From an uncultured Candidatus Saccharibacteria bacterium (GTDB taxonomy: Bacteria > Patescibacteriota > Saccharimonadia > Saccharimonadales > CAZNVG01), in the NCBI GenBank assembly GCA_964440975.1, contig CAYYKI010000001.1:2591-66590 (forward strand): DNA of 64,000 nucleotides, read 5' to 3'. How positions within the stretch are numbered: the first letter of the stretch is position 1; every line of letters starts with the position of its first letter. The position numbers and the translations under genes were made by a program. The notes under the pieces were generated by a model. That model was not told the DNA's origin. It saw only the letters and a list, made by a program, of their open reading frames with translations, and did not search any database. Below, one piece after another: positions 7,849 through 63,677 of this stretch.

Positions 7849-7853
7849 AGTAT

Positions 7854-36349: not shown

Positions 36350-36386
36350 TGTTGTGCCAACGTAGGTTTAACTATACCATAATCTT

Positions 36387-38011: not shown

Positions 38012-38929
38012 CTAGCGTCGTTTCTTTTTAGTACTCTTCTTATTCTTCGGGGTGGTTTTGGTTGTTTTTTTAGGTTGCGTGATGGTTACTTTGCTGCCGT
38101 CTTCTGCGGCGGTGATAAGCTCTTCTTCGTCTTGTCCCAATATGCGACTTTGTTGGTAGTAAGCCACTACTCCGCTCACTAACCAGTAGAGTGGTAGGGC
38201 CGATGGAAGTCCTACCGAGATAAGCAGGATTAAACCGGGAATTAACAGGAGTGTAAATTTGCTAACTGCTGCGTTCATTTCGGCTTGGTCTGCTTGTTTG
38301 CCAGCCGCGCTTTCCTTTAGAATTTCGCGCACTGTTTTAGCCTTACCCTGGTCTGGCATAAGCTGCTTAGATTGGAAGTATTGCACTACCGCACTGCCGG
38401 CAGCAATGAGTAGCGCCGGGAAGTAATAGGCGCCATCAGTCATGGCGGCGCGTTTAAGATCTATACCTATAAAGTTATAGCTAAACTTACCCATATCTCC
38501 AGCCAACTCTTTAAGATAGCCGGTGTTTTTAAGAGGTTCATAAGCATACTTAATGATGTTGTTTGGGTCGTCGATGACACGCCGTAACCCAATGTATAGT
38601 CCAATGAGAATAGGTAGCTGCACGAGTACAATTCCTAGCGAAGAAAATGGACTGATCTCACGTTCTTTGTACAGCGCCATTGTGAGCTGAGCTTCTTTTT
38701 GTCGGTCCCCTTTGGCTTCTTTTTTAATACGCTTCAGCTCGGGTTGTAGCTGGCGCATCGCCTTGGTGTGATGCAGCTGCTTTTTAAGCAGTGGCCACAG
38801 TAAGATACGGACTATGATCGTAAAGATAATGATTGACACACCGAGGTTATGCCCAGGAACAAAACTCTGGATAAAAATGAGTATGTTAAGGATAGGGATA
38901 ACGATAAAGTTCTCAAACATCAGGAGCAA
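38012..38929 (-). CDS. yidC: membrane protein insertase YidC/Oxa1 family (short Gram-positive type)
   Basis: FTIIVRILLWPLLKKQ...MRQLQPELKRIK...LPILIGLY core motifs; Lys-rich C-terminal tail. Confidence 0.85.
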   Translation of the reverse strand: MLLMFENFIVIPILNILIFIQSFVPGHNLGVSIIIFTIIVRILLWPLLKKQLHHTKAMRQLQPELKRIKKEAKGDRQKEAQLTMALYKEREISPFSSLGIVLVQLPILIGLYIGLRRVIDDPNNIIKYAYEPLKNTGYLKELAGDMGKFSYNFIGIDLKRAAMTDGAYYFPALLIAAGSAVVQYFQSKQLMPDQGKAKTVREILKESAAGKQADQAEMNAAVSKFTLLLIPGLILLISVGLPSALPLYWLVSGVVAYYQQSRILGQDEEELITAAEDGSKVTITQPKKTTKTTPKNKKSTKKKRR

Positions 38930-45058: not shown

Positions 45059-46444
45059 CTACTCTTCTGGCGCAGGCAAAAGTGGGCTGTTGTATTCGAA
45101 GTGGTAGTCCAGGAGATTGATATCGATATCGGCCTCGCGAAGTTGCTTGAATACTTTTTCCCTCGCTTGGTCGCTATCCTCGAACATGGTGATATTCAAC
45201 ACGCCAAGTGAGGAAACCTCGTATGTATATGTTCCGTCGTCCTTATCTTCTATAGACTTGAGCTTGCTTTCCATATCGGTTGGTACTTTGACAGTATCCT
45301 TACTCAAGATATCTATGGTGCGCGCGTTGGTTAGCACAAAAAGTCGGCCGTTTTCAGTCGTCATGGAAAGTGGCTGTTCACGATATCCCTTGTCGGTTTT
45401 TGATTGGGTGTTTGGTAGTATTCGCGTAAAGCTTTTCGTATCAACGTTCGCCTGCACGAGTGAATACGGTCGATCCTTGCTTGTAAAGTCGCTTCCAAAA
45501 ATGTAGAGGATGTTATTGTGCCAGGCCAAGCTGGCTTCGCTTGAGAAACCACCGTCGCGTAATACCGTCTTTTTTGAGTTTAGGTCTAATATGGTGAGTT
45601 TTGCTTCAGCTTCACCGTCACCCTCTCCACTGCCTTGTGCTTGCAAATACGCCGAGTGCTTGCCGTCATTTGAAACATAGATGGTTTCTGCCGCATCATC
45701 ACTCTGTGATACGGTCTTGGTTTCAACGTCGATCAGGTTTAGTACCCCAACCGCGTCAGCATCTCTCTTTATATCCGCCATGACGTAGAGAGTATTATCC
45801 GTAGCAACCACTGTTTGCGCGGCGCCTGCAACCTCGTAGCTGTCAGCCTGCCTCAAGTCTTCGCCTATCCCCACTACGGAGCTGGTATCGCCGCTGTCTG
45901 CCTCCGCCCCCTCTTCCGTGTCAGCTTCGAAGGGACTGGTAGTTACATAGAAAGGATACTTCTTATTGCCCGTGAAGCACTGTTCAAGATCGGTACCTAT
46001 AAAGCTAAAGGCTTTTGTTTGCAAGTCAAAACCCCACCAGTATTCATCATCGAGTGATTGGTTCTGAGCGACAATTATCTTGCCAAGGTCATCGTCTTCC
46101 AAATACCCTTTAGCTCTAAACACAACCTTGTTGCGTTGCTTGTTCCAGCACATTCGCTCGATAATTGGCAGTTTAAACGTCGGAGTGGTAGCGGTAGTGG
46201 CACCGGTTGCAAGATCTAATTCTGAAAAGTTTTTACCGTTAAACAACGACAGCTTCTTGCCGTCTTCACTAGACACAGCCTTTACGTCACCGCTGGTTAT
46301 GCCACTATAAATTTGCAGAGTTTCGGTGTTGTACGTTGGCCCTCGACGCGTCAGCATAAATACAACCAGCAGCACTGCCGTGGCAATCGCGCCAATGATG
46401 AAAAGTTTTTTCTTGTTGTTTTTTGGTGTGACTGTTGGGTCCAT
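45059..46444 (-). CDS. membrane-anchored extracytoplasmic beta-rich protein, last gene of the T4SS-like operon
   Basis: N-terminal TM helix LFIIGAIATAVLLVVFML. The remainder has alternating beta-strand-like segments and acidic patches. Confidence 0.45.
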   Translation of the reverse strand: MDPTVTPKNNKKKLFIIGAIATAVLLVVFMLTRRGPTYNTETLQIYSGITSGDVKAVSSEDGKKLSLFNGKNFSELDLATGATTATTPTFKLPIIERMCWNKQRNKVVFRAKGYLEDDDLGKIIVAQNQSLDDEYWWGFDLQTKAFSFIGTDLEQCFTGNKKYPFYVTTSPFEADTEEGAEADSGDTSSVVGIGEDLRQADSYEVAGAAQTVVATDNTLYVMADIKRDADAVGVLNLIDVETKTVSQSDDAAETIYVSNDGKHSAYLQAQGSGEGDGEAEAKLTILDLNSKKTVLRDGGFSSEASLAWHNNILYIFGSDFTSKDRPYSLVQANVDTKSFTRILPNTQSKTDKGYREQPLSMTTENGRLFVLTNARTIDILSKDTVKVPTDMESKLKSIEDKDDGTYTYEVSSLGVLNITMFEDSDQAREKVFKQLREADIDINLLDYHFEYNSPLLPAPEE

Positions 46445-46446
46445 GG

Positions 46447-47877
46447 CTACTCCGGTACGGATTTATATGCTTCTCTGAGGAATGGTTGTACGGTAATGAA
46501 TCTACCCGGATAATCTTTGAGACACTCGTTGGCAGAACAGCTTGGGCGAGAGGCGCCGTTGGTCATGTCAAAGTGTAGGTGTGCTTCTGTTCCGTTAGCA
46601 TTTTTGCTTTCGCCGCTATGGCCCAGTAGTTGCCCAGCAGTTATGGTATCGCCGACATGTACCACATTGCCGTCCTTAGGCATGTGGGTGTAGTAATAGT
46701 TGATGCCATCATCTCCCTTTATTTGCACATTTCGTCCGAATTTATCAGAGTACCCTGTCCGTACTACCTTACCGGGTCGCGAGGCTACTATAGGAGTGCC
46801 CGGGGGCGTAAAGATGTCAGCGGCATTGTAATGGTGGTGGCAATTGGTGTTATTATTTTCGCACCACTGATCTGGTTTTTGAGAACGTATAATCGACTTT
46901 TTTACTTGTAGTGGGAACACAAAACCACTGGCACTTACTGCGACTTGTGGCACTGTTCCGGGGGTGCACTGCTCGCTAGCCGGGGCCGCTGGGCCATCCG
47001 GTGCCGGAGATATGCCGCCTGGAATAGCATCGGCCTCATAGACGGTACCAGACTCGACTGACTGATCTGGCGCCCAGCGATACTGTAAGTCGTCACCCTG
47101 TGAGTTGCGCCTACCGCCAGACGGCCCACCGTATTGCCATTGGGCTGCATCAATAGCCTTCATTGCAGCGGGCGCCAATCCAGCAACCCGTCCATCATAT
47201 TCGGCGGGAGTTCCTTCGACATATCCCGACCAATAGCTCGGTACACTACCCCTAGAGTTGCTTTTAGTGCCCGTCCATGGTGCGGGTCCAGTTTCTATAA
47301 GGGCCGTAACCACTGCCTTCTTGGTGCGCGGGTTAATGACTAGTATTTTGCGTAGTGCGCTGTAGTACCAGCCTTTGGTGTCTTTTTCGGAGCCATTTAC
47401 TTTGCTACTACCGTCCCATTTCCAGGTGAACGGTCGCGTACGCATGTTGGAATAAAACTTTACATCAATTGGTTTAAGGATATTTTTCATAGAACCACCA
47501 ACAGCGAGAGATGGCTGGCCGGCGATATGAAGGAGTCGCACTACCCCATTTGAGTCAATAAATGCTTCACTCTCTTGCCCCGTTCCACCATGGGTTGCCG
47601 GCAGCTTATGCCCCTCAAGGGTGTCTGAGCCACCAGCTGGTATGGGCCCGGCAGGAGTGGTTGTCGTTGTGGTGGTAGGCGTGGCTGGGCAGGTGATGCC
47701 GTAGTCGCACGCATCTAGCACGTCAACATTATTTTTGCGGAGGGCTGCTTCCCGGCCTGGTGAACAGTCCTTACCGATCTTAGCGTGTACCGGTTTAGGG
47801 ACAAATGCCAACATTACAGACAGCATAAATATAGACACGGTGACAATAGCCTGTATACGATGCAGCAGCTTAGTCAT
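46447..47877 (-). CDS. secreted M23 (LytM) family peptidase
   Basis: Signal peptide. C-terminal M23 motifs HHHYNAADI (HxxxD) ... GHSGESKNANGTEAHLHFD (HxH). Confidence 0.75.
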   Translation of the reverse strand: MTKLLHRIQAIVTVSIFMLSVMLAFVPKPVHAKIGKDCSPGREAALRKNNVDVLDACDYGITCPATPTTTTTTTPAGPIPAGGSDTLEGHKLPATHGGTGQESEAFIDSNGVVRLLHIAGQPSLAVGGSMKNILKPIDVKFYSNMRTRPFTWKWDGSSKVNGSEKDTKGWYYSALRKILVINPRTKKAVVTALIETGPAPWTGTKSNSRGSVPSYWSGYVEGTPAEYDGRVAGLAPAAMKAIDAAQWQYGGPSGGRRNSQGDDLQYRWAPDQSVESGTVYEADAIPGGISPAPDGPAAPASEQCTPGTVPQVAVSASGFVFPLQVKKSIIRSQKPDQWCENNNTNCHHHYNAADIFTPPGTPIVASRPGKVVRTGYSDKFGRNVQIKGDDGINYYYTHMPKDGNVVHVGDTITAGQLLGHSGESKNANGTEAHLHFDMTNGASRPSCSANECLKDYPGRFITVQPFLREAYKSVPE

Positions 47878-50800
47878 TTGGACACCCCGCTAGGATTCGA
47901 GGACCCTTAACCGACACGTGAATATGATTGGCATGGTCTCTGAGTGTCCCTGAGCCATAGCTATGTGGCTCGCCCTGTTTAAGGTTAGATGTGCCCGGGG
48001 GTGGATTGGAGTAAATCAACTCGTTAATGTTGAGCGCAGCACGGTTGTTATACAGATACGGCATAAGCTGCGGCGCAACAGACTCGTTACCGATATCAAT
48101 AGCATATCCTCCGTAATGGTTTGAGGTGACCTTTGTTTGTCGTGTGCAGGGATTGTGTCCTGTTTGGATAACTGACGGCTCAAGGGTAACTTTAGCCTGC
48201 TCTAGCATGGCTACTATCAGCTGAACCAAACCATCCTTAGCCACGCCATTTTGGATATCAACGGTTGGCCTATTGGTCTGCGGTTTCCAGCCAGGATTGT
48301 TGAAAATACGGTTTACCAATTGAGCCCTCTCTCCTGCAGGTAGTGTGCCGCCGGGAGTTGGGCCGGTTTCTCCAGTAATTGCCTGGGCGACAACGTCATT
48401 GACGATTAGCTGGGCAAGAATGGTATAGCAGTTGGCTCCTGGGTGGACACCCGCAGCCTCTGTAATACATGCTGACCTGTTAATGCGGCCGTCATCAAAG
48501 TAGGCCTTAAGATCAATTATCTTAAAGTTCTTAGCGATAGCCTGCAGCTTAAGAATGTTGTTATAGGTATCATACTTTGCCTGGCCAGCTCCGCCAGAAT
48601 AGATATTTACAAAATATATTGAGATATTTGGGTTTGCCGCGCGCGCTTTATCCACTGCCTCGACAATTTTTGCACCATAACCGTCTGGCGTCTCCAGTGC
48701 ATTAGTACCGAGCGCAATAACGAGTGTACCTGCTCGAGCAATCTCGGCAGTGTGTGCGTCGATTTGTTGAACGCCCCAAGTCAGGGCCTGGCCACCAACA
48801 GCATTAATGGTTGATGTCCAGCCGGCGGCTTGGAATTTATCGGTAATTTTTACATTGTTATATCCAACAGTAAGTGAATCCCCAATCATATAAACCGACT
48901 TATTCACCGCAGCGGGGCTAGGTGTTGGGGCTATCGGCTCGTCATCTGATGTGTCGCTCAGATCACCAGTAATATTGTCAGAGATTGAGGTGCTGAGGTC
49001 TAGGTCCATTACATATACACGCATACGATTCTTTTCCTCGCTATTGTCCTTGCATTCGGTGCGTTCACCAAAATCACCCGTATCGGTAGAGCTATTATAT
49101 TCAACATCTACCGGGTCAATACAGCTCTTTTTGAATTTATCAAACTCACTATCGGGCACTGGCTTGCCGGCTTCGTCTACGTAGTTCTGGTCCATCATCC
49201 AGCGTTCATTTTCGCCAGGATCTATAGTCTCGGTAACGTTATCTGGTAGGCCCATTATCGGGTTTCCAAAGGCATCGTGGGCAATTTCGTCGGGGTCTTC
49301 TGCAGCAAAGGCCTTATTGGTGGTTACATCGAGTACTGATCCGAACATGGCAGGTATGCCGGCAAAACTCATGCTCCCAATTGCTCCAACGTTCGCAAGT
49401 TGACTATATCCAGAAATCAAGCTAGTTGAGGCCAGTGAAGTGGGATTGCCGAGGCTAATGTAGCGTTCAAACAGACTTTGCTTGGCGAGTTCGGTGCGGC
49501 GGGTTTCGTCCACCTCTTGTTGCAGCGCAAATACTTGGCGATTTTTAAGCGGTTTCATGCCCATACTATGTCCACGCATTTGCGACATGGCTCCCGCTCC
49601 CGATACTAAGGCTGCTGCCAGGTTGTCACCACTTTCGTCACCAGTTATGACGGCCCCTGCCAAGGTTCGGGCCAAGATTGGAAGTAGCACGGCTTTTGCG
49701 ATTTCTAGGGTTGCTGAAATAGCACCTGCGCTTGCTGCACTGGCTGCAACTGCTGTCGCGGTAAGTGTTCCTCCGGTAGCAATACCGCCTCCAATCCTGA
49801 CGACGACTAACTCGGTTGCGCTGGTTGCGATTTGGAAGATTGGATTTCCAGCCACCTTACAAATACCTTTAGTTGGCAGATAATGATCTGCGGCATCCAG
49901 GAACGATCCAAGGTCGCCACCGATTTTTCCATCAACCGAATATCGATTACGCTCCCTGCCAACTACTCCCGGGTTCTTTCGTTTGTTGCTCACATAATTC
50001 CAGGAGCCCGAACTATAGAATGATTTGCCTGTCGACTTGTTTAGAGTGTGGGCCAGGGCCATAAAGCCCGCCATGTCCTGACCGTCGATATCACCATCTT
50101 TAACTGAATCAGCCATAACAAATATAGCCGTAGCAAATTTCGCTAGCTGCATTGCGCGCATCACCCGGCTCGCACCACGAACTGCTTGGGCAAAGGCATA
50201 GGCCTGACAGCTATAGTCGGCAACGGCTGCAAAGCCTCCAATTGCGCCTTTAGCTGCACCTTCTGCACCCTCTTTTACGGTCTTGCCGGCAATATCTGCA
50301 GCTTCACTTTCAATCCGCTCTAAGGACTCTTCACCAACATCCCCCGCAATGCGCCCGGCTGGATCAGCATCAACTTGCTCTGCGATTTCATCCGCAAGCT
50401 TGTTCGCATCATCTAATTCACTAGCAGCCTGGTCGATGTCTGCATCGGCTCGCTCGCGTTCTGGGTCTGGCGATTCTGGGTCATCTGGCCCCGGATCTGT
50501 CTTGGCCTCCCCTTTGCCTTTAGCGGTAACATCATAGCCCGGGATCAATCCCATAAGCGCACCGCGCATCTTAGCTTTAAATTTTTCCCTAAAGTTAAAT
50601 TTGCGTCCTAGTTTTTCACGTAGCTCCAACTCTTTCCGCTCGAGCCAGTCAACTACCCGATTGTCCCTGATCCAGTTTTTGCGGATTAAACCATATCGCT
50701 TGAATACAGCTCGCGCTTTACGTCCGCGCCAAAAAGCACTCCTCCCAGAGTGCCGTTCTGCGATTGCCTCTTTGATCGCTGAGCGTCGTTTCCAGATTGA

Positions 50801-51529
50801 TTCAAACTGATCTGCTGTATTGATACGGGTACCATCTGGCCCTATCAGCTCAGAGAGTGTTCCTCGATTTGTGTTCATCTTAAAGTCGTAGCCATTTGCG
50901 CGCATATCGGCAACAAACTTATCTGACTGGATGTTTTTATAAATTGAAGTTAACTTACCACGTGACTTATACCCATCAAATTCCCCCTCGTGGAAGAAAA
51001 ACCCTCTCGAAAACACCTTACCTGACCGTGTCGTTACTACTTGGGACTGTATGCCCCCGTATTCGCGAAGCATTATTTCTTTAATATGTACCAGCTCAAA
51101 AGCCGGCATAAAGATTGATCCGGCGATAGTTAGGCCAAGGGCAGCAAGCGAACCAAACCCGGCAATCATGAGGGCGCGTTTTCGGTTTCTTAGGGTGGTT
51201 CCTAGGCCACCGCCCTTCTTTTTACGCCCAAGTAGCCGTTTTTTCCCGTCATCCTTTTTATCAAAGTCACCTTCTTTATAAAGGAGGTTCGGGTCACGCT
51301 CTTCCTCGTCCTTTTTATCCTTTTTGCCCTTTTTCGGGCCGGAGCCGTCGGTTTCTTTAGCAGCTAACTCATCGTGGGCATCGCTTTGTTCTTCGTCGCT
51401 GTCGGCATAGTAGCCAGAATCTCCTTGTTCTAGCAGGGCATTTGCTTCGTCGTCATCCATGCCTCCAGAATCTTGGTTGGCGATTGGTCGTGTTTCTTCT
51501 CGTTCTTTATCGTATACGTCATTTGGCAT
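47870..51529 (-). CDS. giant membrane-anchored multi-domain cell-wall hydrolase candidate (1219 aa): SGNH/GDSL hydrolase plus LAS (M15-like) metallopeptidase domains
   Basis: Charged N-terminal tail, one TM helix (ALMIAGFGSLAALGLTIAGSIF), and an Ala/Gly-rich central region. MIGDSLTVGYNN is a GDSL-like motif. C-terminal SNHYGGYAIDIG ... DHANHIHVSV is the LAS-family HxxxxxxD ... HxH zinc site. Confidence 0.55.
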   Translation of the reverse strand: MPNDVYDKEREETRPIANQDSGGMDDDEANALLEQGDSGYYADSDEEQSDAHDELAAKETDGSGPKKGKKDKKDEEERDPNLLYKEGDFDKKDDGKKRLLGRKKKGGGLGTTLRNRKRALMIAGFGSLAALGLTIAGSIFMPAFELVHIKEIMLREYGGIQSQVVTTRSGKVFSRGFFFHEGEFDGYKSRGKLTSIYKNIQSDKFVADMRANGYDFKMNTNRGTLSELIGPDGTRINTADQFESIWKRRSAIKEAIAERHSGRSAFWRGRKARAVFKRYGLIRKNWIRDNRVVDWLERKELELREKLGRKFNFREKFKAKMRGALMGLIPGYDVTAKGKGEAKTDPGPDDPESPDPERERADADIDQAASELDDANKLADEIAEQVDADPAGRIAGDVGEESLERIESEAADIAGKTVKEGAEGAAKGAIGGFAAVADYSCQAYAFAQAVRGASRVMRAMQLAKFATAIFVMADSVKDGDIDGQDMAGFMALAHTLNKSTGKSFYSSGSWNYVSNKRKNPGVVGRERNRYSVDGKIGGDLGSFLDAADHYLPTKGICKVAGNPIFQIATSATELVVVRIGGGIATGGTLTATAVAASAASAGAISATLEIAKAVLLPILARTLAGAVITGDESGDNLAAALVSGAGAMSQMRGHSMGMKPLKNRQVFALQQEVDETRRTELAKQSLFERYISLGNPTSLASTSLISGYSQLANVGAIGSMSFAGIPAMFGSVLDVTTNKAFAAEDPDEIAHDAFGNPIMGLPDNVTETIDPGENERWMMDQNYVDEAGKPVPDSEFDKFKKSCIDPVDVEYNSSTDTGDFGERTECKDNSEEKNRMRVYVMDLDLSTSISDNITGDLSDTSDDEPIAPTPSPAAVNKSVYMIGDSLTVGYNNVKITDKFQAAGWTSTINAVGGQALTWGVQQIDAHTAEIARAGTLVIALGTNALETPDGYGAKIVEAVDKARAANPNISIYFVNIYSGGAGQAKYDTYNNILKLQAIAKNFKIIDLKAYFDDGRINRSACITEAAGVHPGANCYTILAQLIVNDVVAQAITGETGPTPGGTLPAGERAQLVNRIFNNPGWKPQTNRPTVDIQNGVAKDGLVQLIVAMLEQAKVTLEPSVIQTGHNPCTRQTKVTSNHYGGYAIDIGNESVAPQLMPYLYNNRAALNINELIYSNPPPGTSNLKQGEPHSYGSGTLRDHANHIHVSVKGPRILAGCPND

Positions 51530-51531
51530 GG

Positions 51532-53472
51532 CTATTGCATAGGCCCGTTAGGTTGCGTATTTTGCGGCCCGGGAGCGGGTGCTGACTCCAACGGTTCGTC
51601 TAGGTAGTCCTGGTCTTCTTCGGCGGTGGCTCGCTCCTGCTGCTGTTGCTGTAGCTGCGCGGGGTTTGTGGTGATAAGACTGGCTTCTGTGGGGCTTGGA
51701 GTGATTTGGATATGAACGTGATTCTGGCCAGCAAAGAACAAGCCCTGCCCTACCGGGAACTGACTCAGTCGCTTTCGTTCTTCACTGGTGAGCTTGAACG
51801 TGTCTGCCAGTACGTCTACGGCACTCGTGGATTGCTTGAGGAGAATTTGCATTGAGGCGTTAGCGACAATCGCCCGTCCCATGCGCGACCCCATAAAGTC
51901 TTCAACATCCTGCGTGATGGTCGTTAACCCAAGGTAGTATTTACGGCAACGCTTAGCAATGCTAAAGAGGAAGCTAGCTGAATCCTCATACTTCATTAGC
52001 TGCCACGCCTCATCAACAAGTAGCAGTCGTTTTTTCTTATCGGATTTAGTGCGATTCCAGATGTAGTTGAGCACAATATACATGGCAACTGGGCGGAGTT
52101 CGTCCTCGAGATCACGAATATTAAACACCACCAGCGCATTGTTAATGTCAACATTTGATTGCTGAGAGAAAATACCCGCAAACGTACCACTCGTATATTT
52201 GCGCAGTCGTTGGGCTAATTGTGGACCGGTGCCACCCATATGAAGCAGCGTATCGTATAGGTCGTTGATGGTTGGGGGCGGCGATTTGTGTGTCAACGGG
52301 TCGGTTGTGATCCCGGCTTTGGCATAGGTGTCGATGAGGGCTTGGTCGAGGTCGGCTTCCTCAACAGGATTAAGCGCTGGCGCGAACTGCCCGGCACCCT
52401 CGCCGGCCATTTGTGCTTGCGCCCCACCCATCATCAAGCGTAATAGCCCATGCAATGTAATGAGATTAGACCGCAAGGCGTTGTCCCCGTCGTCGGTATC
52501 GATGACCTGTGGCAAATCAAACGGATTAATGCGTGTTTGCGAATTAAGACTCAGGCGAATGTACGAACCACCGACTGCTTCACACATGCGTTGGTATTCA
52601 TTCTCCGGGTCAATAATCATCACCTCGGTGCCAAGCATCATGCTGCGGAGCGCCTCTAATTTAACCGTGAACGACTTACCGGCGCCTGCCTTTGCAAATA
52701 CCACTGAGTTAGCGTTCTCTAACGTAAAGCGGTCAAAGATCACCAGTCCCGAGTTGTGCATATTGATGCCATACAAAATACCATTCTCTTGGCTCAAATC
52801 GGCCGAGGTAAAAGGAAAGCTAGTGCTAATTGCACCCGTGTTCATGTTGCGCCTAATTTGCAGCTGATCCATAAATTGCGGGACGATGGAGTTGAATCCT
52901 TGTTCCATTTGAGCGGTTGCTGCTTTGCTATAGACGAGCTGCTGGCCAAGAATTGACTCGATTTTATGATGAATGAAATCGAGTTCTTCCAGGCTGCTCG
53001 CATATACATTCATATACAAGCCAAAGCGGAAGAACCGCTCTTCACCTACTTGGAGCTTATCTCGGAGCTCTTCGGCGTCGAGAATGGCAGCTTGCTTTCC
53101 TGGATCACGGACGCGTCCCTTCTCGTTATCAATCTGGATCCCTGCCTCTAGTTGAGAGACTTTTTTGCGCAAATTATCTAGCACCACCTGGCTCTCCACC
53201 GGATAGATATAGATAGAGATGTTCATTTCTTCATCTATGTTGATGATGGGGCTCAGCCAGCCGGTAAATATTTGACGCGGATATCCGTACACATAAAACG
53301 TGCGTGCGTAGCGGGTGCCAAGTCGGAAGTAGCCAGACTGATACTCCAAGCTGCTCGGAGCAATAAAATCGCGGAGCGCCGTTACACCCTTTTGGAACGC
53401 CTGCTCAACCTCTTGCTGTTCGCGAAGACGCTGTTCCTCTGCTATTTGAATTGGATCTTTCTTCTTTGCCAT
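51532..53472 (-). CDS. VirB4/TrbE/CagE-family type IV secretion ATPase
   Basis: N-terminal VirB4 region (DFIAPSSLEY...YFRLGTRYARTFYVYGYPRQIFTGWL), Walker A KAGAGKSF, Walker B LLLVDEAWQL. 646 aa. Confidence 0.85.
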   Translation of the reverse strand: MAKKKDPIQIAEEQRLREQQEVEQAFQKGVTALRDFIAPSSLEYQSGYFRLGTRYARTFYVYGYPRQIFTGWLSPIINIDEEMNISIYIYPVESQVVLDNLRKKVSQLEAGIQIDNEKGRVRDPGKQAAILDAEELRDKLQVGEERFFRFGLYMNVYASSLEELDFIHHKIESILGQQLVYSKAATAQMEQGFNSIVPQFMDQLQIRRNMNTGAISTSFPFTSADLSQENGILYGINMHNSGLVIFDRFTLENANSVVFAKAGAGKSFTVKLEALRSMMLGTEVMIIDPENEYQRMCEAVGGSYIRLSLNSQTRINPFDLPQVIDTDDGDNALRSNLITLHGLLRLMMGGAQAQMAGEGAGQFAPALNPVEEADLDQALIDTYAKAGITTDPLTHKSPPPTINDLYDTLLHMGGTGPQLAQRLRKYTSGTFAGIFSQQSNVDINNALVVFNIRDLEDELRPVAMYIVLNYIWNRTKSDKKKRLLLVDEAWQLMKYEDSASFLFSIAKRCRKYYLGLTTITQDVEDFMGSRMGRAIVANASMQILLKQSTSAVDVLADTFKLTSEERKRLSQFPVGQGLFFAGQNHVHIQITPSPTEASLITTNPAQLQQQQQERATAEEDQDYLDEPLESAPAPGPQNTQPNGPMQ

Positions 53473-54497
53473 TACATTGCCAACGTATTATCTAGATTAG
53501 GTTGCGAAGCTTCACCTTGTCCTTTGGTAACTACTGGCGCGGTGAGATCATCGAAGTTTTGGATCTGCTGACGGGTGGCTGTATCTGGATTGTAAACATC
53601 GTAATATAACTCTATAAGCTCCTGGGTATCGAGCGGCAGGGCCTGGATTCCCATTTGGGTGAGGCTGTTAAGCACTGCCTGAACCTGGTTGCGCAATTCT
53701 GTTTTTGCCTTTTCAAGCGTTGCCTCATCAATAACCACGGTCTCTTGCTTTTTATTGAAGCCAAAGATGTTATCGAAAAAGCTTTTACCCTTTTGGACTG
53801 TCTGGGCGGTTGTGTTCGGTGGTGTATACGGAATGACCATGTAAAACTTCTTGTCCATGATATTGGTTTGCTGGGTCAATACGGCCATAAACTCTATGTA
53901 GTCTTCCATCAAAAGTGCGAGCAGCATATTGTCGTGCTCGAGTCGGATTTTATTGAGGCGTTCCAGGTATGGGCGCATGTCAACTTTAGTGCTTTTGATA
54001 AATATCTGCACCGGAAAATAGAGCGAGTTCAAAAAGCTCTGATAACTAAACTCTACCGCCTCTCGTTCACCCTGGCTCATGAGGTCAAAGTTGATCGTCT
54101 TACACATAATAACCGACCGAAACGTTCCGTCGTTCATGATGACGACCCCGTCACGAATTTCGCTTATCTTGAGCGTATTTTGGGTACTGTTCGGGTTTGT
54201 CTTGGCCGGTGGCGTCTGACCGAGTGGCTTGCCGTTCTGGTCGACTTGGCCAGCTTGCACCTGACCTGGTACAGCTGGTGTCCCCACTGGCCCACCAGTG
54301 GGTACACCGGGCGTCATAGAGGCATCGGGAATCGCCTGCTGCGCCTGCATCATTGGAGTGACCGCATATTGCGCAACATGCGCCTGCTGATCGTTGGGCG
54401 TTGCTTGTGGGGGTGGAGGCGTGGTTGGCACTCCCTGGTACCCAGGGGGAGCTTGACCGCCGGCCGGTGGTTGGAATTGGTTTTGTTGTGGATCCAT
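53472..54497 (-). CDS. T4SS-associated hypothetical protein with Pro/Gln-rich disordered N-terminus
   Basis: 341 aa, no TM helix. Its stop overlaps the VirB4-like start, indicating translational coupling. Confidence 0.4.
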   Translation of the reverse strand: MDPQQNQFQPPAGGQAPPGYQGVPTTPPPPQATPNDQQAHVAQYAVTPMMQAQQAIPDASMTPGVPTGGPVGTPAVPGQVQAGQVDQNGKPLGQTPPAKTNPNSTQNTLKISEIRDGVVIMNDGTFRSVIMCKTINFDLMSQGEREAVEFSYQSFLNSLYFPVQIFIKSTKVDMRPYLERLNKIRLEHDNMLLALLMEDYIEFMAVLTQQTNIMDKKFYMVIPYTPPNTTAQTVQKGKSFFDNIFGFNKKQETVVIDEATLEKAKTELRNQVQAVLNSLTQMGIQALPLDTQELIELYYDVYNPDTATRQQIQNFDDLTAPVVTKGQGEASQPNLDNTLAM

Positions 54498-54550: not shown

Positions 54551-55591
54551 CTAATGTAGTTTGATGACGACTTCGTCACCGTCACCACTGGCCACCCTAT
54601 CAGCTTCGCGCGCTATTACATCTAAGTTTAAGTCATCACGCTGCGATAACTCAAGTTTAGCAGATTCAGGGAGCGAAACGGTAGTGGCTTTATCGTCTTT
54701 GGCGGGAGTACCCCTATGGCTTTTGCTTGGATCGAGTACGTGCTGGCGCATCGACGAGGGGTATGGGTCGTAATGTGGTGCCGCACCTCCTGCGTTAATA
54801 AACGGCATGGTACTACCATTGTCGACTGTCGTTGTAGGAGTGGTTGGCGGAGCCTGTGTTGGGGTGATGACCGATGGCTGAGTGGCGCTTGATTGATACG
54901 GTGCGGCCTGATTATTCCAGGCGGTCACCGGTTGTCCGGCTTGGGCTGATTGCATCTGGGTAAGGGCGGCATCACGAACACTGCTGGTGGCTTTGCTGGC
55001 CAATTCGTCCATGTGATGGGCTAAGTAGCTAGCGTTAGGGTCTAATATATCGTCTGCTGCCGTTATGTCGCTATCTGGAACCATTTGCGGGAGCGCTGTG
55101 GCGGGCACTAAACGGTCGGATGGGCCGCTGGAAGGAAATAAATCATTCGACGAATCATTCACGTAGGCATTCTTTGTTGCCCATCCGCGGCTATCGATGG
55201 TCGTGGCTAGTATCTCCAGTCGAGAACGGACTTCCCTTTGATTGAGTCCATTGGAATATTGGTGTTCAATTTTTTTCGGAACCGTAATGCGTACCAGCTC
55301 TTCCATGCCGGCCTGATCCCACACTCGTCGCCGGGGCTTGAGCAGGAAACGCAACCTCGCGCCAAGATACACATCCGTGGGTTGATCGCGCTGAAACGGT
55401 GCGGCCAGGTAGCCAAACAAGGCGATGCCGGGCAAGAAAGGAATAACCAACAGCGGCTGTGCCTTACCCGCTAAAAACGCCAAATAACACAGCAGTATAG
55501 TAATAATTGCAAAAATAAACTGCTTGAGGGTCAACGGCCCTAAGAGCTTATCTTCGGCCTCGACATCTTGCGGTACTTTATACGTCGACAT
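54551..55591 (-). CDS. T4SS-associated membrane protein, possible VirB3-like N-terminal domain with C-terminal extension
   Basis: N-terminal ~100 aa with two closely spaced TM helices (FIFAIITILLCYLAFLAG / LLVIPFLPGIALFGYLAAPF). A small hairpin membrane gene just upstream of the VirB4 region is typical of VirB3/PrgI/ConD. Assignment by topology and position only. Confidence 0.35.
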   Translation of the reverse strand: MSTYKVPQDVEAEDKLLGPLTLKQFIFAIITILLCYLAFLAGKAQPLLVIPFLPGIALFGYLAAPFQRDQPTDVYLGARLRFLLKPRRRVWDQAGMEELVRITVPKKIEHQYSNGLNQREVRSRLEILATTIDSRGWATKNAYVNDSSNDLFPSSGPSDRLVPATALPQMVPDSDITAADDILDPNASYLAHHMDELASKATSSVRDAALTQMQSAQAGQPVTAWNNQAAPYQSSATQPSVITPTQAPPTTPTTTVDNGSTMPFINAGGAAPHYDPYPSSMRQHVLDPSKSHRGTPAKDDKATTVSLPESAKLELSQRDDLNLDVIAREADRVASGDGDEVVIKLH

Positions 55592-60237: not shown

Positions 60238-60374
60238 ATTCACGGTTATTATAGGCCTTTGGCGATACGGCCACAAGTATTTGATAGCCATTTCTGGTCA
60301 GCTCAATTCGCTGAGGCGTTTACAGCTTACGGCAGATATGATTGAATGAACATATTCGGTATACTAATAAAAAG

Positions 60375-61124
60375 ATGAAACACAACTCTATTCTAAGTTT
60401 AGCTCACCAAGCCACTCGTGTGGCTGTGCTGCTGTTGGCACTTGCTGCACTGCTAGGGCAAGCTACCCCTGCGCGCGCCCAAAGTCCCGACTCCATCGAC
60501 CGTGATGTCTCGCCCGATTTTGCAGCAACGTGTTATCAGCAGAAAGGCACCTTTAAGTATGACAACCCAGATACTCCCACCGACGAGAATATGACGCTTA
60601 AAAAATATGAAGAGATTAACTGTGCAGATTTGCAGTCAGTTGACGGAGGTAAAGATTACCAAGCAGCAACGGCTTGCTACGAGCTCGTCACAACAAGTGA
60701 AGGTGGTCGCCAAGCAAAAACCGTGCTGGTTGCAAATTGCAACGAAATCCGTTTTTTGCGCGCCCTGGAGCAAAACAATGGCGCCACCGAAGAAGATCCT
60801 GATGGCGGCGGCGGTGGAGGCTCAGAAACCACACCAAAATCACCCCGTAACTTTGGCAACTTGGAGTCAAATGACTTACCCGTGCAGGACCAGCCGTTTT
60901 TTAAGGACTACCTCATCCCCATTGTTAATATTCTTTCGGGTGGTGTTGTAGCGCTGGCAGCGGTCTTTATGGTTGTGGCTGGAGTGCAATATTCGACCGG
61001 TCGCGACAACCCGCAAATGGTTGCTGCGGCTAAGGCGCGTATCGTTAATGTACTGATTGGCTTGCTCGCCTACCTATTCATCTATGGCTTCTTGCAGTGG
61101 ATTATTCCAGGGGGCGCACTGTAA
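60375..61124 (+). CDS. VirB2/TrbC-like pilin paralog 1 (large N-terminal domain)
   Basis: Signal peptide, ~150-aa head, then the conserved C-terminal two-helix hairpin ...GVVALAAVFMVVAGVQYSTGRDNPQMVAAAKARIVNVLIGLLAYLF. Confidence 0.5.
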   Translation: MKHNSILSLAHQATRVAVLLLALAALLGQATPARAQSPDSIDRDVSPDFAATCYQQKGTFKYDNPDTPTDENMTLKKYEEINCADLQSVDGGKDYQAATACYELVTTSEGGRQAKTVLVANCNEIRFLRALEQNNGATEEDPDGGGGGGSETTPKSPRNFGNLESNDLPVQDQPFFKDYLIPIVNILSGGVVALAAVFMVVAGVQYSTGRDNPQMVAAAKARIVNVLIGLLAYLFIYGFLQWIIPGGAL

Positions 61125-61525
61125 TGTTTAGCTATGTAGCAGTGACCGTGAGCCAGTGGGGCTTTCAGCTAGCACAACTTGCCGGAACCTGCGATAAAAA
61201 CCGCACCTTTTTGGGGCTCAAGCCGTGGTATCACTACGCAAACTTTGACGCCAGCTGCGCCTACCTGCCAGCTAATGGCAGCGGGTTTACCGGTGCTGAT
61301 GTTTGGCCGATATTAGCGGTTGTATTCGAAGATTTGTTAGTGATTGCCGCGTATGTGGCGATAGCTTATGTGCTGGTGGGCTCTTTTCAGATGATGACCG
61401 CACAGGGCGAGCCAGATAAGTTCAAGTCTGCACGTGGTACGGTAATCAATGCCCTGATCGGCTTGGTGATTGCAGTAATTGGCGGCCGATTGGTCGGTTT
61501 CCTCTTTAACGGAGTCTTTAAATGA
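61124..61525 (+). CDS. VirB2/TrbC-like pilin paralog 2
   Basis: Start overlaps the previous stop (TAATG). C-terminal hairpin LVIAAYVAIAYVLVGSFQMMTAQGEPDKFKSARGTVINALIGLVIAVIGG. Confidence 0.5.
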   Translation: MFSYVAVTVSQWGFQLAQLAGTCDKNRTFLGLKPWYHYANFDASCAYLPANGSGFTGADVWPILAVVFEDLLVIAAYVAIAYVLVGSFQMMTAQGEPDKFKSARGTVINALIGLVIAVIGGRLVGFLFNGVFK

Positions 61526-61824
61526 TTAGTCAGCTATATTTGTTCTTTGGCCAAACGTGCAACAACCCGTATGGCATTGTTATTCCCTGCCGCGATACTT
61601 CAAGCAATCCAATCGAAACAGCCATTAAGCTGGCGATTGCTGTTGCAGCTGGAGTAAGTATCTTATTTGTCACCATCGGCGCCTTTCGGTACGTCATAAG
61701 TGCCGGAGATCCAGGTAATATTTCGAAAGCCAAAAACACCATCATTTATGCGCTCGTTGGACTTGTTGTTTCAGTGACAGTGTATGGACTGGTAACCTTT
61801 GTAATTGATCGGGCGGCTGGATAA
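61522..61824 (+). CDS. VirB2/TrbC-like pilin paralog 3
   Basis: ATGA overlap with the previous gene. IAVAAGVSILFVTIGAFRYVISAGDPGNISKAKNTIIYALVGLVVSVTVYG. Confidence 0.55.
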   Translation: MISQLYLFFGQTCNNPYGIVIPCRDTSSNPIETAIKLAIAVAAGVSILFVTIGAFRYVISAGDPGNISKAKNTIIYALVGLVVSVTVYGLVTFVIDRAAG

Positions 61825-61825
61825 T

Positions 61826-62260
61826 ATGAAGCGACGATTAGTACAACTCGCGTTGGCAATTGTAGCTGTACTTTCGATGGCCTCTGTTTCGCCGGTGCAC
61901 GTAGATGCCCTTGACTGTTCAAAAGACCCTGATCGGGGATCGGCTGCCTGTAATCCAGAAAACCAGAACAACCCCTGCGTTAACCCCGAAGTTGCCAAGA
62001 GCGCATTGTGCGAAAGTACGCGCAACAACCAGGATCCTATTAATGGTCCCGACGGCATACTGACCCGCGCGGTTGAATTGATGTCATATTTAGTTGGTAT
62101 CGCCTCTATAGTTGTTGTAATCGTTGGTGCCATTAGGTTCACCACTTCTTCCGGCGACGCCAATGGTATTTCGGCAGCAAAAAAGATGATAGTTTACGCA
62201 TTAATCGGTATTGTAGTTGCTATATTCGCCCAAGCTCTGGTAATTTTGGTATTGAAATGA
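61826..62260 (+). CDS. VirB2/TrbC-like pilin paralog 4 (Cys-rich variable head)
   Basis: Signal peptide MKRRLVQLALAIVAVLSMASVSPVHVDA, a head with 4 Cys, and hairpin LVGIASIVVVIVGAIRFTTSSGDANGISAAKKMIVYALIGIVVAIFAQALV. Confidence 0.55.
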   Translation: MKRRLVQLALAIVAVLSMASVSPVHVDALDCSKDPDRGSAACNPENQNNPCVNPEVAKSALCESTRNNQDPINGPDGILTRAVELMSYLVGIASIVVVIVGAIRFTTSSGDANGISAAKKMIVYALIGIVVAIFAQALVILVLK

Positions 62261-62655
62261 TGAAAAAACTCAGTCTACTCGTTCTCCCCATTGCTGCCAT
62301 GTTTAGTTTGTTGGCTGCGCCTGTAATTGCCACAGCGCAATCTAAAACTGCCGCGCAAATCGCCTGCGAATCAGCTGGTGGTAGCTGGAGTGGCAGCGGT
62401 TGTGTAAAAAGCAATCCGGCCGAAAAAGGTGTAGACGACACGGTGCGCGCCGCCGTCAGCATCTTGTCGTACATCGCTGGTGTCGCTTCTATAGTTATGG
62501 TTATCGTTGGTGGAATCAAGTATGTCGTATCAAGCGGTGATTCTAATGCGGTCGGTAGCGCCAAGAATACCATCACCTATGCCTTGGTCGGTTTAGTGAT
62601 CGCTATTATGGCACAAGCTATGGTGCGATTTGTGTTTACGAAGTCAACGAGTTAG
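62257..62655 (+). CDS. VirB2/TrbC-like pilin paralog 5
   Basis: ATGA overlap. Signal peptide, 2-Cys head (ACESAGGSWSGSGC), hairpin IAGVASIVMVIVGGIKYVVSSGDSNAVGSAKNTITYALVGLVIAIMAQAMVRFV. Confidence 0.6.
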   Translation: MMKKLSLLVLPIAAMFSLLAAPVIATAQSKTAAQIACESAGGSWSGSGCVKSNPAEKGVDDTVRAAVSILSYIAGVASIVMVIVGGIKYVVSSGDSNAVGSAKNTITYALVGLVIAIMAQAMVRFVFTKSTS

Positions 62656-62722
62656 CCTTGCATAGCTGGGGTCAAACTGCTAGCATACAAAAGATAAGAT
62701 AGTTACTAAACAGGAAAACAAC

Positions 62723-63136
62723 ATGATACAACGCATAAAGTTATTAATCGTTAGCTTGGGTGCTGTTTTTGCCGTAGCGGCACCAGCAGTAGCAGTTTCG
62801 GCGCAGACTGGCGTTACTGAACCAAACGTCGCGTGTGGAATTGAACTTAAGGGTACCAATTGTGGTACAAGTGTTAATCCAGACGAAGGTGAGAACCGCG
62901 TTGTTAACATTATCAAAACTATCATCAACGTTCTCTCGTTGATTGTTGGTGCGATTTGTATCATCATGATTGTCTTCGGCGGCTTTAAGTACATGACATC
63001 AGGTGGTGAGTCGGCCGGTGTGAGTGGTGCAAAGAATACTATTCTGTACGCTGTTGTCGGCTTGGTAGTCGTATTGCTAGCGCAGGCGATTGTCCGCTTT
63101 GTGTTCACCCGAACAACCACCAACCCTACTCCGTAA
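62723..63136 (+). CDS. VirB2/TrbC-like pilin paralog 6
   Basis: Signal peptide, 2-Cys head (VACGIELKGTNCGTS), hairpin LIVGAICIIMIVFGGFKYMTSGGESAGVSGAKNTILYAVVGLVVVLLAQAIVRFV. Confidence 0.6.
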   Translation: MIQRIKLLIVSLGAVFAVAAPAVAVSAQTGVTEPNVACGIELKGTNCGTSVNPDEGENRVVNIIKTIINVLSLIVGAICIIMIVFGGFKYMTSGGESAGVSGAKNTILYAVVGLVVVLLAQAIVRFVFTRTTTNPTP

Positions 63137-63156
63137 GTACCGCACGAACGAAAACT

Positions 63157-63186
63157 ACAGCCGGCCCGCAGCCGGCTGTTTTTATT
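63157..63186 (+). terminator. rho-independent terminator after pilin paralog 6
   Basis: Perfect 9-bp stem ACAGCCGGC / GCCGGCTGT with a 5-nt loop, followed by TTTTTATT. Confidence 0.5.
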
Positions 63187-63221
63187 ACCCCCGTTGCTAA
63201 CCAGTTGCTACCAGTGGTAAA

Positions 63222-63677
63222 ATGCCAAGTATGAGACACCGCATCAACCTACTGGTCCTAGCTTTATTAACTCCGCTGATTTCCGTTGTCGCTGCCCTAT
63301 CGGTTCAGCCGCAAATGGTATCTGCGCAAGATTCTAGTGTTACTCTGCCCGACAATAGCACCAGCGTGACCCAAGGCCCGGTTGCCTGTGGTATTGAGCT
63401 TACTACCGGTACTAACTGTGCGGTTGATGGCACAAAGGGCGAAAGTAAGGTACTTGGGATCATCAAGCAGGTTATAAATGTTACTTCCCTGCTGGTAGGC
63501 GCTATTTGTGTGATTATGATTATATTTGGTGGCTTTAGGTATATGGTTTCAGGGGGCGACTCTTCTGGAGTATCAAACGCCAAGAACACCATTCTATACG
63601 CCGTTGTTGGTTTGATCATCGTGTTGCTTGCGCAAGCACTGGTTCGCTTCGTGTTCTCGCGTGCGACGGCAGCCTAG
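63222..63677 (+). CDS. VirB2/TrbC-like pilin paralog 7
   Basis: Signal peptide, 2-Cys head (VACGIELTTGTNCAVDG), hairpin LLVGAICVIMIIFGGFRYMVSGGDSSGVSNAKNTILYAVVGLIIVLLAQALVRFV; closest sibling of paralog 6. Confidence 0.6.
   Translation: MPSMRHRINLLVLALLTPLISVVAALSVQPQMVSAQDSSVTLPDNSTSVTQGPVACGIELTTGTNCAVDGTKGESKVLGIIKQVINVTSLLVGAICVIMIIFGGFRYMVSGGDSSGVSNAKNTILYAVVGLIIVLLAQALVRFVFSRATAA

Follow-up and report, generated by a model that had tools for sequence, protein, structure and literature searches.

What the giant gene that directly follows virB4 does for the T4SS (type IV secretion system) of epibiotic Saccharibacteria is the question raised by the locus described here. It lies in a stretch of 64,000 nucleotides (hereafter the window; contig CAYYKI010000001.1, positions 2,591 to 66,590) from an uncultured Candidatus Saccharibacteria bacterium, and it encodes a protein of 1219 aa. 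Few machines have been shown to be essential to the epibiotic life of Saccharibacteria, and the T4SS is among them. Our analysis makes it probable that this protein is a cell-wall-remodelling subunit of the chromosomal Gram-positive-type T4SS/pilus system of a Saccharibacteria epibiont, with two catalytic heads, an SGNH domain and a LAS-type zinc peptidase domain, carried by a large helical module (the N-module).

The open reading frame (ORF) occupies 47870..51529 on the minus strand, starts with ATG and encodes 1219 aa, exactly as given in an earlier reading of the letters alone (the sequence-only reading). It is a real gene and not a chance ORF, since a syntenic orthologue at 51% identity and hundreds of homologues were found. 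Its parts are as follows.

51179..51529, minus strand: charged cytoplasmic tail, probably disordered (aa 1-117; composition and hydropathy)
51101..51178, minus strand: single transmembrane anchor (aa ~118-143; Kyte-Doolittle 19-residue windows peaking at 1.83)
48905..51100, minus strand: conserved all-alpha N-module (aa ~144-875; family profile, invariant Cys, AF2 model)
48395..48904, minus strand: SGNH/GDSL domain with Pro/Thr/Ser/Gly linkers on both sides (aa 876-1045; PF13472, 11-domain alignment, match of the profile to the OatA C-terminal domain)
47873..48394, minus strand: LAS-type zinc peptidase domain (aa 1046-1219; invariant columns, AF2 model, Foldseek, profile against PDB sequences)

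The first ~110 residues contain 32% D/E and 17% K/R, the acidic part coming first and a K/R-rich stretch standing directly before the membrane helix. With ~11 K/R among the 30 residues that precede the transmembrane segment, we infer from the positive-inside rule that the N-terminus lies inside the cell. The charged tail and single membrane helix proposed from the letters were thus recovered as a basic stretch followed by the sole strong hydrophobic segment (aa ~118-143), which forms the start of a long helix in the AF2 model (model residues 4-67). A second membrane span at aa ~598-630 was rejected, this segment containing E, K and R and being modelled as a well-packed helix (pLDDT 83-95). The motifs quoted by the sequence-only reading all stand where it had placed them, namely MIGDSLTVGY (Ser885), SNHYGGYAIDIG (H1138...D1145) and HANHIHVSV (H1199/H1202/H1204), with the residues G883-D-S885-L, S1136-N-H1138-YGGYAI-D1145 and H1199-AN-H1202-I-H1204.

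The C-terminal head gave the clearest assignment. In an alignment of the target domain with forty homologous domains retrieved by exhaustive search (41 sequences, mean column identity 33%), H1138, G1141, D1145, H1199, H1202 and H1204 were invariant, and S1136, A1143, N1162 and E1170-L-I nearly so; Cys1128 and Cys1216 were conserved among close relatives. These residues form the zinc motifs H1138-x6-D1145 and H1202-I-H1204, extended by H1199 to H-x2-H-x-H, and the predicted zinc ligands are H1138, D1145 and H1204, with H1202 as the first His of HxH and H1199 as an extra His, as in VldE. When the corresponding profile was compared with PDB sequences, VldE of S. pneumoniae came first (1.5e-7), followed by the N-domains of Sonic, Indian and Desert hedgehog (2e-5 to 2e-3, Sonic at 2e-5) and by VanY-type DD-carboxypeptidases (2e-3), with weak matches to LdcB, the S. 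albus DD-peptidase and Ply500. The profile of the full-length family, which matched LAS enzymes through the tails, reached the VanY-type enzymes at 9e-9. The AF2 model of the domain (pLDDT 94.7, pTM 0.88) agreed with this ranking. In the PDB, Foldseek placed the catalytic domain of VldE first, at E 4e-4 and probability 1.0 with a target-normalised TM-score of 0.62-0.65, and then ~25 entries of Hedgehog N-domains; the query-normalised TM-score was only ~0.43 because of an extra sub-domain in the query.

The HxxxxxxD...HxH zinc site announced by the sequence-only reading is therefore borne out by invariant ligands and by a LAS fold seen in both profile and structure. Its labels, VanY and M15-like, need amending, the closest match being the L,D-endopeptidase of the MT3/VldE type. 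VldE (Spr1875; PDB 9FLH-9FLN) was shown by experiment to be a zinc-dependent peptidoglycan L,D-endopeptidase with the L-Ala-D-iGlx bond of cross-linked stems as its cleavage site. It binds zinc through H301, D308 and H375, the last within the motif H370..H373-x-H375, and its catalytic module is termed MT3, after a motif that was originally noticed in mycobacteriophage TM4, in the tape measure protein (PMC11667670). VldE shares the H-x6-D and H-x2-H-x-H zinc site with the target and is its best match by both fold and profile, which is why we assign the C-terminal domain, on sequence and model, to LAS metallopeptidases of the MT3/VldE kind and not to classical VanY. Identity between the two is only ~18-20%, and each has parts that the other lacks: VldE carries an N-terminal LysM-type wall-binding module, has no link to a T4SS and works on its own septal wall, whereas the target is extended at its N-terminal side by a helical sub-domain whose alignment partners are Hedgehog N-domains. 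Neither Pfam (with the isolated domain searched up to E<=10) nor NCBIfam nor PHROG gave a match to the domain. Remoter LAS/MT3-type copies, 30-38% identical over the C-terminal half, were seen among loci L010-L023, in Rhizobiales, Nitrobacter, Tahibacter, Polyangiaceae, a cyanobacterium and others.

The preceding domain matched PF13472 (Lipase_GDSL_2) over aa 882-1035 and profile positions 2-176 of 178, with an E of 2.6e-8 and 35.0 bits against a gathering cutoff of 32.9, so that the SGNH domain read from the letters stands. It was aligned with ten related domains from family members (n=11, 21-36% identity). The G, D and S of block I (G883-D884-S885-L886) were invariant in all 11 domains, as were block III (G941-T-N943 and LG-N) and His1029 of block V. 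Block II is less certain: Gly912/913 ("AVGGQ") falls opposite "GKVGRQ" of OatA in the profile alignment, in a column that varies between G and S. Compared with PDB sequences, the 11-domain profile found 6WN9/6VJP as its best match (E 2e-15), ahead of 1YZF, an Enterococcus acylhydrolase (2e-10), the TesA/TAP thioesterase-lysophospholipases (1e-8 to 1e-7, with other acetyl-esterases also matched) and PatB (3e-6). At the lower end stood 4K3U (7e-3), deposited as "GDSL-like Lipase/Acylhydrolase family protein", which we take to be Ape1 of Neisseria. The best match, 6WN9/6VJP, is the C-terminal domain of S. aureus OatA, a peptidoglycan O-acetyltransferase (PMC9487903). OatA-C and PatB/DUF459 are thus the closest characterised relatives; they have in common with the domain the blocks I, III and V as well as a block II of the form "vG(R/Q)", and both act on the C6-OH of N-acetylmuramic acid in peptidoglycan (PMC9487903). 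In a large protein database, the relatives of the domain were small SGNH proteins, many of them actinobacterial; PF04311 (DUF459, the PatB family) is present in several besides, an AT3 domain in one, and some are named "lysophospholipase L1-like esterase" by their sources. Judged by these matches, the domain falls within that section of the SGNH superfamily whose members work on the O-acetyl groups of peptidoglycan.

The peptidoglycan O-acetyl esterase guessed at from the letters is thus supported indirectly by a profile that fits OatA-C best and PatB more weakly, and by relatives of the DUF459/PatB type. No acetyl-donor partner of the AT3 (PF01757) or MBOAT type was found in the target or elsewhere in the window, whose polytopic proteins comprise Wzy_C, YidC, an ABC-2 permease, a sugar transferase and three (693, 468 and 1018 aa) lacking matches. 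Since this partner is missing and the domain is fused to hydrolases, the SGNH head is most likely an esterase that removes O-acetyl groups, and not a transferase. The composition of the SGNH segment (GC 0.46 vs 0.50; GC at third codon positions 0.44 vs 0.46-0.48) was also considered as a sign of recent horizontal insertion, an idea dropped as the difference is too small.

Between the membrane helix and these two heads, the sequence-only reading had seen a "600 aa Ala/Gly-rich region". A and G together are only moderately frequent (16-33% per 100 aa), and the segment proved to be a confidently folded, conserved helical module and not a low-complexity spacer. Its family was delimited by exhaustive HMMER searches with a profile of N-module and LAS tail built without the SGNH segment, the hits being representatives of 50%-identity clusters; a word-index search had returned only the protein itself and one orthologue when made with the full protein (low-complexity saturation), and nothing with the isolated LAS domain. 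The family comprises at least 720 such representatives when the cutoff is E<=1e-3, of which 421 pass <=1e-10; most have 900-1100 aa. Among the best 151 hits, 134 have the module matching aa 111-875, 89 have the LAS tail (42 of these with strict motifs) and 11 have an SGNH domain related to that of the target. Four cysteines (Cys441, Cys557, Cys803 and Cys826) are invariant in 73 N-module sequences, in spite of a mean column identity of ~12%. These four residues, and the position of all 8 cysteines of the target after the transmembrane segment, fit an extracytoplasmic, disulfide-bonded N-module. From such conservation, the N-module is taken to be the family-defining core of these proteins.

The AF2 model of the N-module is almost wholly helical (pLDDT 78.3, pTM 0.82). 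No match to the module was found in Pfam, NCBIfam or PHROG, and Foldseek gave no significant match to its fold in the PDB (best E 2.9) or among the viral models of BFVD (best E 0.15). A phage tape measure protein was considered, as such proteins (e.g., TM4 with MT3) are likewise long and mostly helical, with a Gly/Ala-rich segment and a lytic tail of the LAS/MT3 type, and as M23 domains are also common in them (PHROGs). This candidate was not supported: the N-module does not significantly resemble tape measure proteins in sequence or in fold (none in PHROGs, BFVD E 0.15, TM-score <0.1), and its context is a T4SS and not a phage. Kinship with solved T4SS parts was rejected as well, Foldseek against the PDB having returned nothing and a match of the family profile to CagY (E 5e-5) covering only the charged tail, where it is probably compositional.

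The composition of the family clarifies which of the two heads is the unusual one. Of ~122 full-length N-module proteins, 63 end in a LAS domain, 16 have no tail and 43 have another tail, in which Pfam recognised M23 (19 proteins), VanY (4), SGNH together with another enzyme (3), Amidase_2 (2), and M14, M74, CHAP and NosD-like domains (one each). By this census, wall peptidases and amidases replace one another at the C-terminal end of N-module proteins. The SGNH insert is rare and patchy in the same set (6 of ~122). The orthologue (P0002; 51% identical and syntenic) lacks exactly aa ~876-1045 and keeps the LAS domain at 60% identity, while another protein (P0033) has the same order of N-module, SGNH and LAS with an N-module only ~17% identical; its gene (locus L024) lies between VirB4 and a gene encoding a Phage_lysozyme2/cysteine-peptidase-like protein, and adjoins recF-dnaN-dnaA. 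At a further locus (L026), the product of the gene after that of the N-module protein (P0042) combines a signal peptide with SGNH, Phage_lysozyme2 and LAS domains. From the arrangements of P0002, P0033 and P0042, it follows that the two genes after VirB4 exchange SGNH, LAS, lysozyme, M23 and CHAP domains among themselves. The SGNH insert is the sole unusual part of the target, a peptidase tail being the norm for the post-VirB4 position in Saccharibacteria.

Two further observations concern these loci. The N-module protein of L026 (651-3848, 1065 aa) ends in a non-hydrolase tail of ~250 aa which matches none of the modules of the target and has no precomputed Pfam family; the hydrolase domains are here shifted to the following gene, that of P0042. 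In L024, a gene of the 23S_rRNA_IVP family (PF05635) lies between recF and dnaN (6704-7081).

The genomic setting is that of a Gram-positive-type T4SS operon, with a VirB4-type ATPase gene upstream of the target and an M23 gene downstream, as the sequence-only reading had proposed. The genes concerned are the following.

45059..46444, minus strand: last gene of the operon, 461 aa, N-terminal transmembrane segment, no family match (hydropathy; tblastn)
46447..47877, minus strand: partner gene, 476 aa, secreted or anchored, C-terminal M23 domain of lysostaphin type (PF01551, E 1.5e-18)
51532..54497, minus strand: split VirB4, consisting of an N-part (53472-54497) and an ATPase (51532-53472) (NCBIfam, Pfam)
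54551-55591, minus strand: PrgI/VirB3-like gene (PF12666 PrgI, E 1e-10)
55635-57179, minus strand: 514-aa protein, no matches
57235-60291, minus strand: 1018-aa polytopic membrane protein (~6 hydrophobic segments)
60342..63677, plus strand: 6-7 small VirB2-like pilin genes, divergent from the T4SS operon (PF18895 for the first gene; shared pattern)

The VirB4 ATPase ORF (646 aa) matches NCBIfam conju_CD1110 at E 4e-109, and its N-part (341 aa) matches the N-terminal region of conju_CD1110 and TrsD; Pfam reports P-loop_TraG and CagE_TrbE_VirB for the split VirB4. The stop of one VirB4 ORF and the start of the other have base 53472 in common, and the split is also present in an orthologous metagenome locus (L001) and in Southlakia epibionticum (SEML1_0009/0008). 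The stop of VirB4 had been thought to overlap the start of the target; the letters show a gap of 2 nt instead (TAG CC ATG). It is at its other end that the target overlaps a neighbour, its stop covering the start of the M23 gene by 8 nt. The 1018-aa protein may be VirB6-like, considering its position and Table S2 of Wang et al. (2023). Among the pilin genes, only the first is confirmed by Pfam (PF18895 T4SS_pilin, E 1.6e-6), the others having the same signal peptide and two C-terminal hydrophobic segments; a comparable pilin array was reported for S. epibionticum.

The M23 partner has an N-terminal hydrophobic segment, and its best matches among PDB sequences are lysostaphin and LytM. Its N-terminal ~320 aa (aa ~30-340, two thirds of the protein) had no match in Pfam, NCBIfam or PDB sequences. 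Within the protein, the stretch KILVINPRTKKAVVTALIETGPAPW...RVAGLAPAAMKAID recalls, by eye only, motifs of RlpA/DPBB-type lytic transglycosylases; if this likeness were real, the M23 protein would provide the operon's "missing" glycan-cutting activity. The sequence-only reading had indeed noted that the usual transglycosylase/CHAP pair is replaced here, and no lytic transglycosylase, lysozyme, CHAP or NlpC-P60 domain was detectable by Pfam in the target or its operon neighbours. Homologues in other lineages do have such domains nearby, e.g., Phage_lysozyme2.

Just downstream of the last gene of the operon, at lower window coordinates, lie dnaA, dnaN and recF. The layout of the window recurs in L001, where the 461-aa protein is also kept (tblastn, 43% identity), and the placement directly behind VirB4 recurs in L001, L002, L004-L006, L009, L024 and L026. 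A T4SS layout with these genes has also been described for Patescibacteria generally. Among species-representative genomes, the closest relatives of the C-terminal domain belong to metagenome-assembled genomes of Candidatus Saccharibacteria/Saccharimonadia (43-57% identity), in whose loci the LAS domain stands ~2.7 kb downstream of VirB4; VirB4 was found upstream of it in seven loci (L002, L004-L006, L008, L009 and L016), and was not found in the fetched flank of L003 and L007. Two named family members are annotated Candidatus Saccharibacteria. Going by these relatives, we assign the window to a genome of the Saccharibacteria type. One relative (L003; CAYOAI010000003.1, 6001-6465), with a LAS domain 53% identical to that of the target, comes from an assembly labelled "uncultured Gammaproteobacteria"; this identity equals that of bona fide Saccharibacteria assemblies and no VirB4 lies within 6 kb, so that the contig was probably mis-binned and is of Saccharibacteria origin, or else the domain is a paralogue that stands alone.

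The best reference for this locus is the T4SS of S. epibionticum ML1 (SEML1_0006-0019), which has the same layout, adjoins dnaA and is indispensable to epibiotic growth (Wang et al., 2023, Cell). Within it, SEML1_0007, of 1113 aa, is essential in transposon sequencing, as is nearly the whole locus (Wang et al., 2023, Tables S1 and S2). Like the target, SEML1_0007 lies directly downstream of VirB4 in a T4SS locus adjoining dnaA/dnaN/recF, has ~1100 aa and is mostly without Pfam match; its C-terminal ~155 aa are placed in the ECOD "Hedgehog/DD-peptidase" group (Wang et al., 2023, Table S2). Its full-length Foldseek neighbours have M15B or M23 tails, consistent with a swappable tail. Unlike the target, SEML1_0007 has no reported SGNH domain (1113 vs 1219 aa), and its downstream partner is a protein with a double lysozyme and a cysteine peptidase domain, whereas that of the target is the M23 protein.

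Among better known systems, the hydrolases of the VirB1 type in Gram-positive T4SSs (PrgK of pCF10, TraG of pIP501, CwlT of ICEBs1 and TcpG of pCW3) are, like the target, multi-domain proteins encoded in a T4SS operon near VirB4. PrgK and TraG also have an N-terminal membrane anchor. These four enzymes combine a glycosidase (SLT, lysozyme or muramidase) with CHAP or NlpC/P60, whereas the target combines SGNH with a LAS metallopeptidase, and its helical module of ~750 aa has no counterpart in them. Such hydrolases open the wall locally for the machine (PMC12102498). For Saccharibacteria, "peptidase and lysozyme homologues downstream of virB4" have already been mentioned (Quinonero-Coronel, 2025), and one family member bears the NCBI name "D-alanyl-D-alanine carboxypeptidase family protein". 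In the searchable literature, no description was found of the size or modular logic of the N-module family, of the MT3/VldE affinity of the tail, of the OatA/PatB-like SGNH insert or of any SGNH domain in a Saccharibacteria T4SS.

Taken as a whole, the domain architecture suggests the following mode of action. The charged N-terminal tail would lie in the cytoplasm and a single transmembrane helix would serve as anchor, with the disulfide-containing helical module of ~750 aa outside the membrane, probably as a structural partner of the T4SS. Flexible Pro/Thr/Ser/Gly linkers would tether the two catalytic heads to this module. The LAS head most likely cuts stem peptides of peptidoglycan, by analogy with VldE at the L-Ala-D-iGlx bond of cross-linked stems, and the SGNH head most likely strips O-acetyl groups from the glycan strands, through which partner hydrolases would gain access to the wall. 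The M23 endopeptidase, coupled to the target in translation, would cut cross-bridges, and the three enzymes together would open a local gap in the peptidoglycan for the T4SS and its pili. Of this scheme, the identity of the domains, their conserved catalytic residues, the operon around them and the spread of the family are shown here; topology, substrates, direction of the SGNH reaction and choice of wall are inferred.

Several points weigh against this scheme and have to be set beside the rival explanations. The LAS domain was not detected by the VanY/M15 models of Pfam (PF02557, PF13539, PF08291 and others), and no T4SS component of solved structure could be recognised as kin of the N-module, so that its structural role, probable as it is, amounts to a guess. 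SEML1_0007 is a likely counterpart of the target by position, size and domain annotation and not by sequence comparison, and its essentiality does not separate machine assembly from an anti-host role. Further objections concern the SGNH head. OatA and PatB are transferases and not esterases, and as a single sequence the target domain gave no OatA match by phmmer, only the 11-sequence profile reaching it. Ape1-type O-acetyl-peptidoglycan esterases, in which the proposed activity would have its parallel, show a marginal similarity (4K3U, E 0.007, by our identification of this entry), short of family membership. Lastly, position -3 of block V is Asp in 7 of the 11 domains and Ala1026 in the target (EAAGVHP), where DxxH is therefore absent; of the Ser-Asp-His triad by which the sequence-only reading had proposed to judge the domain, Ser885 and His1029 are present and the Asp is replaced. 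The domain may thus be slow, use a dyad or be non-catalytic. A dead SGNH domain, acting as a glycan-binding or spacer module beside a LAS head alone active, would agree with this substitution, with the lack of Asp at the canonical position in 3-4 of the 11 domains including the target, and with a Pfam score barely above threshold. We nevertheless hold it to be quite improbable, given that Ser885, Asn943 and His1029 are invariant in 11 of 11 domains that are 21-36% identical, and that Ser-His dyads are functional in CE2 esterases, while NanS lacks the block V Asp (PMC9487903). This precedent makes activity plausible, short of proof, and the sequence-based assignment to the SGNH fold stands despite the incomplete triad. 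Local O-acetylation, e.g., shielding the epibiont's own wall from its own or host muramidases, is suggested by the transferase nature of OatA-C and PatB; these have an AT3/MBOAT membrane partner that feeds them and a full Ser-His-Asp triad, whereas the target has no donor domain, none was found in the window, its fusion partners are hydrolases and not synthases, and the block V Asp is absent, which makes this role more improbable still. A lipase, lysophospholipase or general carbohydrate esterase, which would take host lipids, or else teichoic or capsular polysaccharides bearing O-acetyl groups, as substrate and serve lipid scavenging or removal of a surface barrier, deserves slightly more credit and is nonetheless unlikely. 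It would account for the matches to TesA/TAP and other acetyl-esterases, for relatives named "lysophospholipase L1-like esterase" and for the lack of fatty-acid synthesis in Patescibacteria (PMC10633639); yet OatA-C matches 5-7 orders of magnitude better than the lipases, DUF459/PatB is co-annotated among the relatives, all partner domains in the N-module family act on peptidoglycan, and SGNH is fused with lysozyme in P0042.

The other question is which wall is attacked, the epibiont's own, the host's or both. The essentiality of SEML1_0007 fits own and host wall equally, and the specificity for L-Ala-D-iGlx does not discriminate between them because this bond is common to nearly all peptidoglycans. 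It is conceivable, if on balance doubtful, that the heads project past the wall of the epibiont to de-O-acetylate and cut host peptidoglycan of the Actinobacteria type at the contact site and so let T4SS pili or nutrients through, which would be compatible with remodelling of the epibiont's own wall. In phage TM4, the MT3 motif helps to attack actinobacterial walls from outside. The LAS domain belongs to the MT3 type, which takes its name from that motif of the TM4 tape measure protein (PMC11667670). In line with such a role, no relaxase or coupling protein is recognisable in the T4SS, on which the epibiotic growth of S. epibionticum depends, the nearest SGNH relatives beyond the family are often actinobacterial, secreted SGNH-lysozyme-LAS versions occur at the same locus position, and tails are swapped between lineages, as adaptation to host range would predict. 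However, the target is membrane-anchored, its place beside VirB4 is sufficiently explained by the need of Gram-positive T4SSs for a hydrolase of their own wall, and a near-universal bond gives no clue to its target. More speculative again is the broader proposal that the N-module is a new T4SS stalk or tether presenting swappable "wall-drill" heads where epibiont and host meet. In this lineage these would be the OatA-like SGNH esterase, the MT3-type L,D-endopeptidase and the coupled M23 endopeptidase, which would first strip O-acetyl groups from the host wall, then cut its peptide cross-links and open it from outside for the pilus and for the uptake of host material, tail swaps tracking host wall chemistry and so contributing to host range. 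The favoured reading, a wall-remodelling T4SS subunit with two heads, holds for either wall.

With this assignment, a "hypothetical" giant gene after VirB4 becomes a member of a family that is large, with 720 or more clusters at 50% identity, and that joins a conserved core without known fold to an exchangeable place for enzymes that cut peptidoglycan; to this a few lineages, that of the window included, add an OatA/PatB-like SGNH domain. The handles gained are named catalytic residues, a predicted L-Ala-D-iGlx specificity and a predicted need for O-acetyl removal. Tail swapping amounts to a natural experiment that could tie enzymes to host wall chemistry. Should only the epibiont's own wall be remodelled, the protein would be an ordinary, though unusually built, VirB1 analogue.

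Other features were observed elsewhere in the window. A CHAP protein of 552 aa (16895-18553, plus strand; E 4.8e-20), with one hydrophobic segment, is a further wall amidase/peptidase, ~30 kb from the T4SS locus. Surface-polysaccharide genes lie at ~6469-9344 and 33489-37481 and encode GT2/GT4 glycosyltransferases, an ABC-2 permease, an initiating sugar transferase (Bac_transf) and a ligase/polymerase of the Wzy_C type; the gene of YidC occupies 38012-38929, and the polytopic proteins of 693 aa (20646-22727) and 468 aa (14759-16165) have no Pfam match. A full-length group I intron was recognised at 5320-5560 on the minus strand (Rfam RF00028, 76.5 bits, E 1e-17), in a window that contains no tRNA or rRNA gene. 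Its 5' end is overlapped by an ORF of 112 aa (5502-5840, minus strand), which resembles an HNH homing endonuclease by eye (CxxC...HH...CxxCH) and has no Pfam match at E<=0.001, and downstream of the intron lies a SNF2-helicase/methyltransferase fusion of 1380 aa (1090-5232, minus strand).

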